This document shows positions 33,001 to 39,000 of a stretch of DNA of 44,878 nucleotides, piece after piece. Origin of the DNA: a virus. A program made the position numbers. Each line of letters starts with the position of its first letter. Position 1 is the stretch's first letter. Where the stretch lies: UHGV virus genome UHGV-0250870. One strand, 5' to 3'.

Positions 33001-36000
33001 CTCGGCAAACCTGAGTGCGTACAGCAACAGCATTGTGGACACGCCCACGTACTTTGCGTTTGCAAAAGGGGCCGGGCTGATGGGGGAAGCCGGACCTGAA
33101 GCCATTATGCCCCTGACCCGGGCGGCGGATGGCTCGCTGGGCGTACGCGCGGTGGGCAGTATGAACGGCAGTGCCGGTCTGGTGTATTCCCCGGTCTACC
33201 ACATCGCCATTCAGAATGACGGGGCTAACGGACAGATAGGGCCGGAGGCGGCAGGCAGTCTTGTGCAGCTGATTGACCAGCGGGTGCAGGCGGTGATGCT
33301 GTCCATGCGACGTGACGGAGGAATGCTGAGTGGCTGAGATAAAAACGCTGCATCTGGTCCCGCGTGAAGGGATGCAGGTGAGTGAGAAACCGTCGGTGGT
33401 GAGGGTTCGGTTTGGTGACGGTTATGAACAGCGCCGACCGACGGGACTTAATGCCAGACTGAAGACGTTTCAGGCGGTGTTCCGGGTGACGGATGAACCA
33501 ACCCGGCGCTGGCTGGATGAATTTTTATCCTGGCATGGTGGTTACCGTGCCTTTTTGTGGCGACCGCCGAAACATAACCGGACGGTGAGGGTGGTATGCC
33601 GGGAGTGGAGCGTCACAGATAACGCCAGGTACAGTGATTTCAGTTGTACGATTGAGCAGGTGGTGAACTGATGCAGGATATTCACGAAGAAAGTCTGAAC
33701 GAGTCGGTTAAATCAGAGCAGTCACCGCGGGTGGTACTCTGGGAAATCGACCTGACGGTACAGGGCGGTGAGCGGTATTTTTTCTGTAATGAGCTGAATG
33801 AAAAAGGGGAGCCGGTCACCTGGCAGGGGCGTAAGTATGAGGCATACCCGATTGACGGCAGCGGTTTTGAGATGAACGGCCGGGGCAGCAGTGCCAGACC
33901 GTCGCTGACGGTGTCCAATCTGTTCGGTCTGGTCACCGGGATGGCGGAAGACCTGCAGAGTCTGGTGGGGGCCACGGTGGTCCGCCGCCGGGTGTATGCC
34001 CGTTTTCTGGATGCGGTGAATTTCGTTGCGGGCAATCCGGAGGCGGACCCGGAGCAGGAGCTGAGTGACCGCTGGGTGGTGGAGCAGATGTCGCAGCTGA
34101 CAGCCATGACGGCCTCGTTTGTGCTGGCTACACCGACCGAGACGGACGGGGCGCTGTTTCCCGGTCGCATCATGCTGGCGAACACCTGTATGTGGGATTA
34201 CCGGGGAGATGAATGCGGGTATAACGGTCCTGCGGTGGCGGATGAGTTCGACAACCCCACCACGGATATCCGTAAGGACAGATGCAGCAAGTGCATGCGC
34301 GGGTGTGAGATGCGCGGCATGGTGGCTAATTTTGGCGGTTTCCTTTCCATTAACAAACTTTCGCAGTAAATCCAATGACACAGACAGAATCAGCGATTCT
34401 GGCGCATGCCCGGCGGTGTGTGCCTGCGGAGTCGTGCGGCTTAGTGGTGAGAACGCCGGAGGGGGAGCGGTATATCCCTTGTGTGAATATCTCTGCAGAG
34501 CCGGAGGCGTATTTTCGTATTGCACCGGAAGACTGGCTGCGGGCAGAGATGCAGGGGGAGATTGTGGCACTGGTCCACAGTCATCCCGGTGGGCTGCCCT
34601 GGCTGAGCGAGGCTGACCGGCGGCTGCAGATAAAAAGCGCACTGCCCTGGTGGCTGGTCTGCCGGGGTGACATTCACAAATTCCGCTGCGTGCCGCACCT
34701 GACGGGACGGCGCTTTGAGCACGGGGTGACGGACTGTTACACCCTGTTCCGGGATGCATACCATCTGGCGGGGACTGAAATGCCGGATTTTCATCGCGAG
34801 GATGACTGGTGGCGCAACGGTCAGAACCTTTACCTGGACAATATGGCGGTCACCGGCTTTTACCGGGTGCCCCTGTCCTCTGCACAGGCGGGCGATATTC
34901 TGCTGTGCTGCTTTGGTGCTTCGGTACCGAACCATGCCGCCATTTACTGCGGCAACGGTGAGCTGCTTCACCATCTGCCTGAACAACTGAGTAAACGGGA
35001 GAGGTATTCCGAAAAATGGCAACGACGAACGCATTCTGTCTGGCGTCACCGCCACTGGCACGCATCTGCCTTCACGGGGATTTGCAACGATTTGGCCGCC
35101 GCCTCAGCCTGTATGTGAACACGGCAGCGGAAGCCATCCGTGCCCTGTCGTTACAGGTGCCGGGCTTTCGCCGTCAGATGAACGAAGGCTGGTACCAGAT
35201 ACGTATTGCCGGTGATGACACGGCACCGGAGGCGGTGTACGCCCGTCTTCACGAACAGCTGGGTGAGGGAACGGTCATCCACATTGTGCCGCGACTGGCC
35301 GGAGCCGGAAAGGGCGGACTGCAGATTGTGCTGGGGGCGGCAGCCATCGTGGGCTCTTTCTTCACGGCCGGAGGCTCGATGGCGTTATGGGGTACAGCCC
35401 TGAGTGCCGGTGGTTTTTCTGCCACCACGATGCTGTTTTCACTGGGTGCCAGCATGATACTGGGCGGAGTGGCCCAGATGCTGGCCCCGAAGGCAAAAAC
35501 ACCGGATTACCGCGCAACGGATAACGGCAGACAGAACACGTACTTTTCCTCGCTGGATAACATGATTGCCCAGGGGAACCCGATGCCGGTGCCTTACGGG
35601 GAAATGCTGGTTGGCTCCCGCCGTATATCCCAGGACATCAGTACCCGTGATGAAGGCGGGGGCGGAAAGGTCGTGGTTATCGGGCGGCAGGGGTAAAAAG
35701 AATAAAAAAATCCCGCAGTGATCGCGGACAGGAACTGCGGGAGAGTTACGAAGATTAAGTGTAAGGAATTATTCTTATATCACGACAAAAAAATTAACGC
35801 AGAGAAATTATACGCGCCACAGTCAGTTTGTGAAAATGTGAAGATATTCAGAATTTTTATGCCATTACCGGTTTTAACCAACAGGATTATCGGTGGGCAT
35901 GAAAGAAAACCCCGGTATCTGCTGATACCGGGGTTTCTCTTTAGCATGGCAGAAATGTGTTTCATGCTTTTCGGGCGAAGGATATCCGACTTCTGTACGG

Positions 36001-39000
36001 AATGGCAAGTGGCGGTTAATTTATTCAGGGGAAGGCTGTATGGGAAAAGGTGGCGGTAAGGCACACACGCCTCGTGAGGCGAAGGATAATCTCAAATCCA
36101 CGCAGATGATGAGTGTGATTGATGCGATTGGTGAGGGACCGATAGAAGGTCCGGTGAAGGGACTGCAGAGTATTCTGGTGAACAAAACCCCGCTGACGGA
36201 CACGGACGGCAATCCCGTGATACACGGTGTGACGGCGGTCTGGCGTGCCGGGGAGCAGGAGCAGACACCACCGGAAGGCTTTGAGTCCTCCGGAGCTGAA
36301 ACCGGACTGGGTGTGGAAGTGACGAAGGCAAAGCCGGTGACGCGCACCATTACGTCCGCGAACATTGACCGCCTGCGGGTTACCTTCGGGGTGCAGTCAC
36401 TGGTGCAGACCACGTCAAAGGGCGACCGTAACCCGGCATCCGTCCGCCTGCTGATTCAGTTACAGCGTAATGGCCGCTGGGTGACGGAAAAGGATGTCAC
36501 CATTAACGGCAAGACCACCTCGCAGTTCCTGGCCTCGGTGATTCTGGATAATCTGCCGCCCCGGCCCTTTAACATCCGGATGGTCCGGGAGACGGCGGAC
36601 AGCACCACGGACCAGTTGCAGAACAGAACGCTCTGGTCATCGTACACTGAAATCATCGATGTGAAACAGTGCTACCCGAACACGGCCATTGTGGGGCTGC
36701 AGGTGGATGCGGAGCAGTTCGGCGGCCAGCAGATGACGGTGAACTACCATATCCGCGGTCGCATCATTCAGGTGCCGTCAAACTATGACCCGGAAAAACG
36801 CACGTACAGTGGTATCTGGGACGGCAGTCTGAAACCGGCATACAGCAACAATCCGGCCTGGTGTCTGTGGGACATGCTGACTCACCCGCGCTACGGCATG
36901 GGAAAACGTCTGGGGGCGGCGGATGTGGACAAGTGGGCGCTGTATGCCATCGGGCAGTACTGCGACCAGACGGTCCCGGATGGTTTCGGGGGGACCGAGC
37001 CGCGGATGACCTTTAATGCGTACCTGGCACAACAGCGTAAGGCGTGGGACGTTCTCAGTGATTTCTGCTCTGCGATGCGCTGTATGCCGGTATGGAACGG
37101 TCAGACGCTGACGTTCGTTCAGGACCGCCCGTCGGATGTGGTGTGGCCGTACACCAACAGCGATGTGGTGGTGGATGATAACGGCGTGGGATTCCGCTAC
37201 AGCTTCAGTGCCCTGAAGGACCGGCACACGGCGGTGGAGGTGAATTACACCGACCCGCAGAACGGCTGGCAGACATCCACGGAACTGGTGGAAGACCCGG
37301 AAGCCATACTGCGCTACGGACGCAACCTGCTGAAGATGGACGCGTTCGGCTGTACCAGCCGCGGTCAGGCCCACCGTGCCGGGCTGTGGGTGATAAAGAC
37401 CGAACTGCTGGAAACGCAGACGGTGGATTTCACGCTCGGGTCTCAGGGGCTGCGGCACACACCCGGTGACATCATTGAAATCTGTGATAACGACTATGCC
37501 GGGACCCTGACCGGCGGACGTGTCCTGTCCATTGATGCTGCCACCCGCACCCTGACGCTGGACCGTGAAGTGACACTGCCGGAGACCGGTGCCGCCACGG
37601 TGAACCTGATTAACGGCAGTGGTAAGCCGGTGAGTGTGGACATCACCGAACACCCCGCGCCGGACCGGATACAGGTCAGTACCCTGCCTGATGGTGTGGA
37701 GACATACGGGGTGTGGGGACTCTCCCTGCCGTCACTGCGCCGTCGCCTGTTCCGCTGTGTCTCCGTCCGGGAAAACACGGACGGCACCTTTGCCATCACG
37801 GCGGTGCAGCACGTACCGGAAAAAGAAGCCATCGTGGATAACGGTGCCCGCTTTGAGCCGCAGTCAGGTTCCCTGAACAGCGTCATCCCACCGGCAGTGC
37901 AGCACCTGACGGTGGAGGTGAGCGCAGCTGACGGCCAGTATCTGGCGCAGGCGAAATGGGACACGCCGCGGGTGGTGAAGGGTGTGCGCTTCAGTCTGCG
38001 CCTGACCAGTGGTAAGGGAGCGGATGCCAGACTGGTGACCACCGCCATCACTGCCGATACGGAGCACCGTTTCAGTGGCCTGCCACTGGGGGAATACACC
38101 CTGACGGTCAGGGCGATTAACAGTTATGGCCAGCAGGGCGAACCGGCCACCACCACCTTCCGGATTAACGCGCCAGCAAAACCCGCCACCATTGAACTGA
38201 CGCCGGGGTATTTTCAGATAACGGCGGTCCCGCGTCTTGCGGTGTATGACCCGACGGTACAGTTTGAATTCTGGTTCTCAGAAAAACGCATCACGAACAC
38301 AGCACAGGTGGAAAAATCTGCCCGTTATCTGGGGACCGGCAGTCAGTGGACTGTCCAGGGGAGCCGGATTAAGCCGGGGACGGATTTCTGGTTTTACGTG
38401 CGAAGCGTCAACCTGGTGGGAAAATCTGCTTTTGTGGAAGCCAGCGGGCAGCCCAGCAATGATGGTGAAGGGTATCTGGAAATTTTCCGGGGGCTGATAG
38501 ATGAGACGCTTCTGGGCCAGGCACTGAAAGAGCGCATTGATGCTTCAGCGCTGCGTACGGAGGTCACGCAACTGGAAGAAGATATCCGTCAGCGGATGGA
38601 CACGGATATCGCAGAAGTGACCCGGAAAATCGGGAAGGCGGAAAACAGCCTCACGCAGCTGGTTGCGAAAAAGAATGAGGACCAGACACTGGCCATCGCG
38701 CAGGTGAGCCAGAAAGTGGACCGGGTGAGCAGTGAAATCTCACAGACTGTCAGCCAGGGGCAGTCAGAAAACGCCCGACAGATAGCACAGGTCCGCCAGT
38801 ACGTGGATAAAAAAGGGAGTGAAATTACCTCGACCACGGATAAAAAGCTGGGTGACCAGGCCGTGACCATACAGCAAATCCAGCGGGTTCAGTCAGACAC
38901 GCGCAATGAGCTGAATGCCATGTATATGCTGAAGGTGCAGAAAACAAAAAACGGTATTCCCTATGTGGCCGGGATTGGCGCGGGGATTGAGGATGTTGAT

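Follow-up and report, generated by a model that had tools for sequence, protein, structure and literature searches.

What lies in the AT-rich stretch between the tail genes I and J of the virus genome UHGV-0250870, and why is it there? The window analysed here is the whole 44,878-nucleotide stretch of DNA from this genome, in which the listing of open reading frames (ORFs) and the Pfam matches lay out a lambda-type row of tail genes, M, L, K, I and J. A preliminary description of the sequence held that AT-rich DNA has been inserted between the last two, at a place where in lambda J follows I directly. The insertion is confirmed, with 343 bp at 41.7% G+C, compared with 60.6% in gene I, 57.6% in gene J and 53.2% in the whole window. 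The comparison with lambda is nearly right, the actual gap there being 60 bp and not zero. The spacer is a moron-type insert in the tail operon of a lambdoid prophage. The same description saw a small RNA (sRNA) gene on its minus strand, and this is the question followed here. The answer is that the unit is very likely a real sRNA gene, an unannotated allele (called W below) of the known PasB / EcOnc22-24 family.

The comparison with known prophage sRNAs that had been proposed turns up PasB, from the enteropathogenic Escherichia coli (EPEC) O127:H6 strain E2348/69. PasB is encoded in prophage PP6 (NC_011601.1, 1466343-1466261, minus strand, 83 nt) and was detected by northern blot as an RNA of 83 nt with the probe AATCCCGCAGTGATCGCGGAGCT (PMC8550237, table S6). 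In E2348/69 the gene is found between tail assembly protein I (ending at 1466255) and gpJ (starting at 1466496), antisense to both, and 20 contiguous bases of the 23 in the probe match the plus strand of the window at 35710-35729. PasB falls in an hfq deletion, with log2 fold changes of -6.8 and -2.4 (PMC8550237). It takes part in 37 interactions detected by ligating and sequencing interacting RNAs (RIL-seq), has targets in both the core and the accessory genome, and occupies the second-RNA position in 99-100% of its chimeras (PMC8550237). When the window is aligned with PasB the promoter block and the terminator are nearly identical and the stretch between them has strongly diverged, the two being 67% identical over the whole RNA, with 57% for the body and 84% for the terminator region. 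A covariance model (R1) built from seven sequences (alleles E, E3, S and T, described below) and from no W sequence matches the window at 35800-35704 on the minus strand over its full length (model positions 1-96) with 64.5 bits and an E value of 6.2e-10; the next match in the window reaches 24.4 bits. Like its counterparts in E2348/69 and Sakai, the W unit lies between I and J and runs antisense to the tail operon, and it has its own promoter (TTCACA-16-TATAAT) and an intrinsic terminator with U7. The minus-strand sRNA architecture is thus homologous in sequence, position and orientation to that of an expressed, Hfq-dependent RNA, PasB, and by inference to that of EcOnc22-24. It is not, on the other hand, near-identical to the E2348/69 PasB, which is what a 2026 census of Pas RNAs looked for, the longest exact run shared by the two being shorter than 28 nt. 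Judged by its sequence, the window RNA is a distinct allele of the PasB / EcOnc22-24 family and not PasB sensu stricto.

A third version of the spacer, with the same layout as in the window, is found in the prophages Sp15, Sp11 and Sp14 of the enterohaemorrhagic E. coli (EHEC) O157:H7 strain Sakai. From this strain EcOnc22, EcOnc23 and EcOnc24 were reported as peaks of Hfq cross-linking followed by cDNA analysis (CRAC) in Sp15, Sp14 and Sp11, and these are three homologous peaks on the strand opposite to the tail genes (PMC4104026, table S2). EcOnc22 gives a northern band of about 85 nt and is destabilised in an hfq deletion (PMC4104026). Notably, the EcOnc coordinates in table S2 of Tree et al. 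2014 refer to an older version of the genome and, taken at face value on NC_002695.2, they point to the wrong features. Using the AgvB1 peak and the corresponding Rfam match in NC_002695.2 as a marker, the shift from NC_002695.1 to NC_002695.2 is +137 to +146 at AgvB1 (1.94 Mb), and such a shift takes the EcOnc22-24 peaks off the J leader and places them on the spacer RNA, over its body and terminator. After this correction EcOnc22-24 would very probably be the I-J spacer RNA of Sakai, that is, the S allele. No link between EcOnc22-24 and PasB was found in the literature, including PMC8550237 and the 2026 Pas census, and a literature search for an sRNA between tail assembly and host-specificity genes found nothing. 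EcOnc10, a peak in Sakai Sp12, was considered and rejected, as it lies near terminase and lysis genes and not near tail genes.

The signals of the window sRNA are those that the preliminary description pointed out, with one correction of length. The minus-strand sigma-70-like promoter is present as claimed, and it is the sole site with at least 11 of 12 matches on either strand of the 44.9-kb window, where block shuffles give a mean of 0.36. In all alleles the start G (G35800 in the window) lies 6 nt past the -10 hexamer. The terminator is formed by CCCGCAGU (35741-35734) pairing with ACUGCGGG (35719-35712), followed by A and U7 (35710-35704), and its U tract ends 8 nt from the stop codon of gene I. 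An 8-bp GC stem with a T7 tract about 80 nt after the promoter had been proposed; stem and tract are there, but the RNA is longer than 80 nt, since, counted from the -10 hexamer, the stem begins at 65 nt and the U tract runs out at about 100 nt, which makes a primary transcript of about 97 nt. If its 5' end matched the published one of PasB, a processed W form would start near 35786 and have 83 nt (35786-35704). In the RNAalifold consensus of 13 allele sequences the terminator stem is the only structure and everything upstream is predicted to be single-stranded; all 13 have the same seven stem pairs. Hfq-dependent pairing RNAs typically look like this, with an unstructured stretch in front of a terminator, and in this model the body is likely to be the region of Hfq contact and the seed.

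Upstream of the promoter is a palindrome, the 22-mer AAATGTGAAGATATTCAGAATT, that agrees with the CRP consensus AAATGTGA-N6-TCACATTT at 14 of the 16 specified positions. It is the sole match in the window at up to two mismatches, and 100 shuffles give none. Its motif TGTGAAGA..TTCAGAA is kept in 169 of 173 spacers and in six alleles, despite -35 and -10 hexamers that vary; the four spacers without it are those with sodC insertions. The level of PasB is higher in overnight lysogeny broth (LB) than in Dulbecco's modified Eagle medium (DMEM), and the CRP-repressed RNA Spot 42 behaves in the opposite way in the same data set (PMC8550237). This rise fits activation by CRP, and control of the sRNA promoter through this putative site is plausible from the sequence. 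Neither of the two PasB papers (PMC8550237; 10.64898/2026.05.13.724894) mentions the promoter or CRP. A divergent plus-strand promoter sharing the CRP-like site was looked for, and no acceptable -10 hexamer was found.

Several points weigh against the interpretation given so far. The canonical activating positions of CRP are -41.5 and -61.5, and the site here, centred near -44.5, is at neither. The terminator stem is invariant and hence offers no covariation, which leaves conservation as the sole support for its structure. The published 5' end of PasB is about 15 nt downstream of the start predicted here, which makes the true 5' end uncertain; since the published end was derived from read coverage, processing or imprecision could explain the difference. 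The identity of EcOnc22-24 depends on a coordinate shift seen at 1.94 Mb and not at their own loci, and Tree et al. do not list an Hfq peak for every such Sakai spacer (PMC4104026). For the W allele itself, the literature gave no transcript, Hfq or target data. The Rfam search that had been suggested also came back negative, with no family at threshold in the spacer and sub-threshold matches that are terminator look-alikes. PasB and EcOnc22 have no Rfam match either, so in this case the negative result means only that the family has not been curated. An origin as a remnant of a known gene or the end of an insertion sequence, which the preliminary description had named as the case that would speak against an sRNA gene, was also looked for. 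There are no protein family matches in the spacer, and in phages and E. coli its J-proximal part matches this locus only.

How variable the RNA is becomes visible when the same spacer is compared among phages. From viral contigs, 173 I-J spacers with 42 distinct sequences were collected (some contigs were fetched by both scans and are counted twice), and 13 representative RNAs were aligned to define alleles. There are at least six of these: W (the window), W2, E (PasB and PasB-2), E3, S (Sakai) and T. All of them keep the upstream palindrome, the start G followed by CGUUA, a U run, an A-rich ARN-like stretch, the motifs A-A-Y-U-C-C and R-A-U-C-U-U, a 7-bp stem CCCGCAG/CUGCGGG and a tail of U6-8. 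Within the motifs, AUCUU and UCC are invariant or nearly so in the 13 sequences. The promoter hexamers, the terminator loop and the remainder of the body are variable, a pattern that points to selection on the palindrome, the GCGUUA start, AUCUU and the terminator. W retains the U7 tail, the U run and the ARN-like stretch.

These alleles are common. By megablast, 800 of the 5426 complete E. coli genomes, CFT073 among them, carry the W allele and 956 the E (PasB) allele; matches have 87-100% identity to their query, whereas between W and E the identity is only 67%. Any match to a query with the whole spacer is found in 1718 of the 5426 genomes, and among the matches to the W or E allele that were listed none has an annotation under it. 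The whole spacer is 100% identical in CFT073, S88, ATCC 25922 and many other strains, and in 634 E. coli records the W allele is conserved to at least 99%. Together with the J-proximal module of the window, W is also found in E. albertii, and related spacers are found in 150 phage records, mostly of Shiga toxin (Stx)-converting phages. A scan of the GTDB representative genomes with an 18-nt terminator word gave 84 matches, of which 83 come from unrelated organisms, for the most part bacteria of high G+C, and are taken as chance; only the one in E. albertii is real. The survey of junctions by protein I retrieved only I genes that are 97-100% identical, and so covers close relatives and not distant lambdoid phages. 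The 2026 Pas census searched by blastn with the E2348/69 sequence as query, at a word size of 28 and a query coverage above 75%, and reports PasB variants that differ by a few nucleotides only, in 1,107 chromosomes (10.64898/2026.05.13.724894). As W is unable to pass such a filter, it is very probably absent from that census. The number reported there resembles the count of the E allele and not the sum of E and W.

The body of the RNA changes independently of its surroundings. Next to the J-proximal module of the window (the "long" module) the sRNA body has been swapped wholesale, with 39 differences in about 100 nt and none in the adjacent 250 nt. The long module combines with the W, W2, E and E3 alleles; conversely, W occurs with the long module, a short module or a sodC insert, and E with the long or the short module. 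Bodies may thus be swapped among lambdoid prophages independently of I, J and the J-proximal module. A tentative reading, for which we would claim less than an even chance, takes the locus as a cassette system in which a fixed frame (CRP-like operator, start, AUCUU core and terminator) carries at least six bodies exchanged by recombination (W, W2, E/PasB, E3, S/EcOnc22-24 and T), so that each prophage would give its host a regulatory specificity of its own under catabolite control.

An observation on the same spacer concerns four viral contigs (L256, L276 and L278 at 2158-3049, L287 at 2158-3046), in which it is about 890 bp long and contains an antisense sodC gene for a Cu/Zn superoxide dismutase (Pfam Sod_Cu, 3.9e-32). 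Here sodC replaces the promoter of the sRNA, and a W-like body and terminator persist just downstream of it. Morons that encode proteins can thus insert at this site as well, and in these contigs the W-like RNA may be a product of the sodC 3' end.

With regard to function, the proposal is modelled on the relatives. A gene running against the tail operon, made up of the palindrome, the sigma-70 promoter, the start at G35800, an unstructured body of about 60 nt and the terminator, would be transcribed from its own promoter in the lysogen. Hfq would bind the W RNA through the terminator and U tail and stabilise it, and the single-stranded body would then pair in trans with mRNAs of the host and the prophage. 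The body differs from that of PasB at 43% of aligned positions, and on this sequence difference the targets of W are probably different from those of PasB. When duplexes of the W body with the 222 translation-initiation regions of the window were folded, the best reached -24.3 kcal/mol, weaker than in 15 of 15 shuffled controls.

It could also be that the RNA works mainly in cis, by triggering the processing of the late tail mRNA or interfering with it, or that late transcription silences or titrates the sRNA on induction. The W RNA is fully complementary to the I-J intergenic part of that mRNA and its gene converges on the late operon, and the arrangement, an sRNA gene inside the late operon on the opposite strand with its terminator 8 nt from the I stop, is kept in all alleles. 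The RNA is, however, 240 nt upstream of the ribosome-binding site of J and cannot mask it, phages that share their I and J flanks exchange bodies freely, and the 37 RIL-seq interactions of PasB, with core and accessory targets, are trans-acting behaviour. A purely cis role also fails to explain the short motifs conserved inside a variable body. A mainly cis role is thus unlikely, although it would be compatible with action in trans. It is very improbable that the unit has decayed from PasB into an inactive relic, with expression or targets lost. Such decay would account for a body only 57% identical to PasB, and the literature offers no expression data for W to set against it. Yet W has the best promoter of all alleles (11 of 12) together with an intact stem and U7, its sequence is at least 99% conserved in the E. 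coli records mentioned above, and variation sits in the body and the loop and spares the signals, which in a decaying copy would be the first to go. An active, trans-pairing sRNA is the reading that we prefer to either of these.

The features of the spacer and the other RNA genes of the window are collected in Table 1.

Table 1. Features predicted or annotated in and around the I-J spacer, and further RNA genes, in window coordinates
Feature	Position	Strand	Remarks
Predicted sRNA, W allele of the PasB / EcOnc22-24 family	35704-35800	-	97 nt; covariance match, alignments
Sigma-70 promoter	35807-35834	-	TTCACA (35834-35829), 16 nt, TATAAT (35812-35807)
CRP-like palindrome AAATGTGA-AGATAT-TCAGAATT	35834-35855		upstream of promoter, centre near -44.5 of predicted start
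Single-stranded body	35750-35793	-	RNAalifold: no conserved pairing; likely Hfq-contact and seed region
U7 run	35793-35787	-	within sRNA body
A-rich ARN-like stretch AAGAAUAA	35776-35769	-	within sRNA body
UUCCUU	35768-35763	-	within sRNA body
AUCUUC	35755-35750	-	within sRNA body
Intrinsic terminator of the sRNA	35704-35741	-	8-bp stem, 14-nt variable loop, A, U7
AT-rich I-J spacer	35697-36039		343 bp; two independently assorting modules
Tail assembly gene I	35016-35696	+	stop TAA 35694-35696; Pfam Lambda_tail_I 6.6e-16
Host-specificity / tail tip gene J	36040-39732	+	ORF listing; CFT073 annotation
J-proximal "long" module	35856-36039		three plus-strand hairpins
H1	35856-35903	+	long-module hairpin
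H2, 13-bp palindromic hairpin	35907-35936	both	U-rich tails on both strands
H3	35943-35968	+	long-module hairpin, then UUUU
Weak promoter-like site TTGCCA-18-TATCCT	35979-36008	-	9/12; possible ~70-nt RNA to palindrome
113-aa ORF	35718-36059	+	judged non-coding
Nested 66-aa ATG ORF	35859-36059	+	hypothetical in phage ASU11; judged non-coding
94-aa ORF	35780-36064	-	judged non-coding
DicF	175-226	-	Rfam
sok antitoxin RNA (hok/sok type)	9041-9216	+	Rfam
Three tRNA genes	13736-13982	+	Rfam
Two tandem STnc100 copies	14061-14251, 14529-14738	+	Rfam

The counterpart of gene I in CFT073 carries the annotation "tail assembly protein". Between the two tail genes, the spacer could in principle encode a small protein, either one of the ORFs in Table 1 or a mini-ORF opposite the sRNA that would form something like a type I toxin-antitoxin pair. 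The ORFs do exist, ASU11 annotates the 66-aa one, and on the plus strand of the E, S and T alleles ATG AAG AT. (MKIN...) follows a GGGAG-like sequence. None of the 113-aa, 94-aa, 44-aa and nested 66-aa ORFs has a Pfam or PHROG match, however (E >0.09), there is no Shine-Dalgarno sequence before the ATG at 35859, and the long ORFs cross two terminator hairpins and overlap J. In close relatives the A run at 35787-35793 occurs as A6, A7 or A8, which shifts the frame of both. As to the mini-ORF, W has ACG in place of its start and E3 has no start, and its length is 22 aa in E and 39 aa in S. The preliminary description had judged the two long ORFs unlikely to be real, and the missing family support and the indels that break their frames in relatives agree with this. 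Type I toxin-antitoxin was accordingly rejected as a candidate, and a protein-coding spacer seems to us the least credible of the alternatives, very improbable in any form.

The J-proximal half of the spacer raises a separate problem. The second perfect 10-bp hairpin that had been noticed there is confirmed, as CCCCGGTATC (35910-35919), TGCT and GATACCGGGG (35924-35933), and flanking AAA/TTT extend it to 13 bp. Its look of a bidirectional terminator is borne out as well, with a U-rich tail on both strands. The long module folds with z-scores of -6.5 to -7.3 against shuffles and is at least 99% identical in 1442 E. coli records and nearly invariant in 1445 genomes; in phages and E. coli it has no match beyond this locus, an apparent "second place" being its own palindrome. 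At the corresponding place E2348/69 and Sakai have the short module, CAGGCAYCC...GGRTGCCTG followed by TTGTTTTT. In its hairpin (e.g. in contigs L002, at about 1925-1960, and L208-L210) one stem position covaries, being found as C-G, U.G or U-A, and a T-rich tail is present on the sense strand only. Because the U.G form pairs only in plus-strand RNA and the tail is sense only, the short-module hairpin is a sense-strand terminator or stabiliser in the late tail operon. The palindrome of the window is probably likewise foremost a sense-strand stop or stabiliser upstream of J, one that would be read through by Q-modified polymerase, and can stop antisense transcription coming from J too.

Instead, the long module might hold a second small RNA, either one of about 70 nt on the minus strand, running from the weak promoter-like site to the palindrome, or a structured plus-strand RNA (35856-35945) from the 3' region of I. 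Both strands of the module fold far better than shuffles (z -6.9 and -7.3), the palindrome has its U-rich tails on both strands, and the module is nearly invariant in E. coli. Against this, the minus-strand promoter has only 9 of 12 matches and no plus-strand promoter was found, there is no Rfam family above chance, and the invariance leaves no covariation to test. The short module has a sense-strand terminator only, which suggests that termination is the function shared at this place, and the palindrome is absent altogether from one contig (L051). A second sRNA is therefore doubtful, and the 70-nt minus-strand RNA in particular is speculative. L051 is an observation of interest for the history of the module. 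Its positions 3803-4138 contain a long module without the 48 bp that hold the palindrome (35906-35953 in the window), between AGAAA direct repeats, and what is left is a simpler hairpin, GCATGAAA...TTTCATGC with TTTT behind it. Either these 48 bp were deleted here, or L051 has the state that preceded a small palindromic insertion.

The prophage has at least five regulatory RNA genes besides the I-J sRNA. At the site of the AgvB/AsxR-type RNAs of EHEC there is an sRNA-like unit at 14739-14823 on the minus strand, with its terminator at 14767-14746, that converges on the second STnc100 copy. It has a stem GCCCGCG/CGCGGGC with T7 and a promoter-like site at 14967-14939, gives no Rfam match, and is the weak second match of the PasB-family model (24.4 bits, E 0.013), with loose similarity to PasA/PasC of E2348/69. 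Downstream of J, at 40507-40536 on the plus strand, a terminator-like hairpin with a T run, CTGCGGGC TTTTTTT, resembles the sRNA terminator and matches the PasB-family model weakly and in part (9.6 bits). It is probably an ordinary operon terminator.

About one third of complete E. coli genomes thus carry an sRNA gene at the I-J spot, with none annotated among those checked. The family and the position are already known; what is new is the common, undescribed W allele, and in this sense the result is incremental and adds no new principle. The version studied so far is the one of EPEC, whereas the W version, with a different pairing region, is found in CFT073, S88, ATCC 25922 and many extraintestinal strains. 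If the cassette reading is true, W would act on its own set of targets in the extraintestinal E. coli where it is common, CFT073 being an example. Seen as one multi-allelic family with a shared and possibly CRP-controlled promoter, PasB, EcOnc22-24 and W could be annotated jointly, e.g. as an Rfam family, and the question arises whether prophages tune host metabolism through the I-J locus.

Among known systems, PasB is located like W in the I-J spacer of a lambdoid prophage and runs against the tail genes. The two have in common the promoter block with the palindrome upstream, an RNA that starts with GCGUUA, the U run, the motifs UCC and AUCUUC, and the CCCGCAG/CUGCGGG terminator with U7. PasB differs in a terminator loop 5 nt shorter than that of W and in a spacer of 240 bp, against 343 bp in the window, with the other J-proximal module. 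EcOnc22-24 (S allele) have the same family signals and are likewise antisense to the tail genes in the I-J spacer; they are Hfq-crosslinked, about 85 nt long and 68% identical to W, with a weaker promoter (TTCCGG / AATAAT). DicF and STnc100, the latter a family that Zhu et al. relate to PasD (10.64898/2026.05.13.724894), are regulatory RNAs of the same prophage, but their sequences are unrelated to the I-J sRNA and they lie at other positions. Membership in the AgvB/AsxR group was considered and rejected, as the spacer has no RF02702 or RF02703 match at the gathering threshold or at E <=10, while AgvB is found by Rfam at its Sakai locus as a control. These RNAs are 51-60 nt long, have no sequence similarity to the spacer, and occupy a moron site downstream of the Q-antiterminated PR' and not the tail operon (Tree et al. 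2014, PMC4104026). They are nevertheless alike in kind, being short, prophage-borne, Hfq-binding RNAs with a conserved terminator end and a variable pairing region with an ARN-type motif, and they too are multi-allelic across lambdoid prophages.

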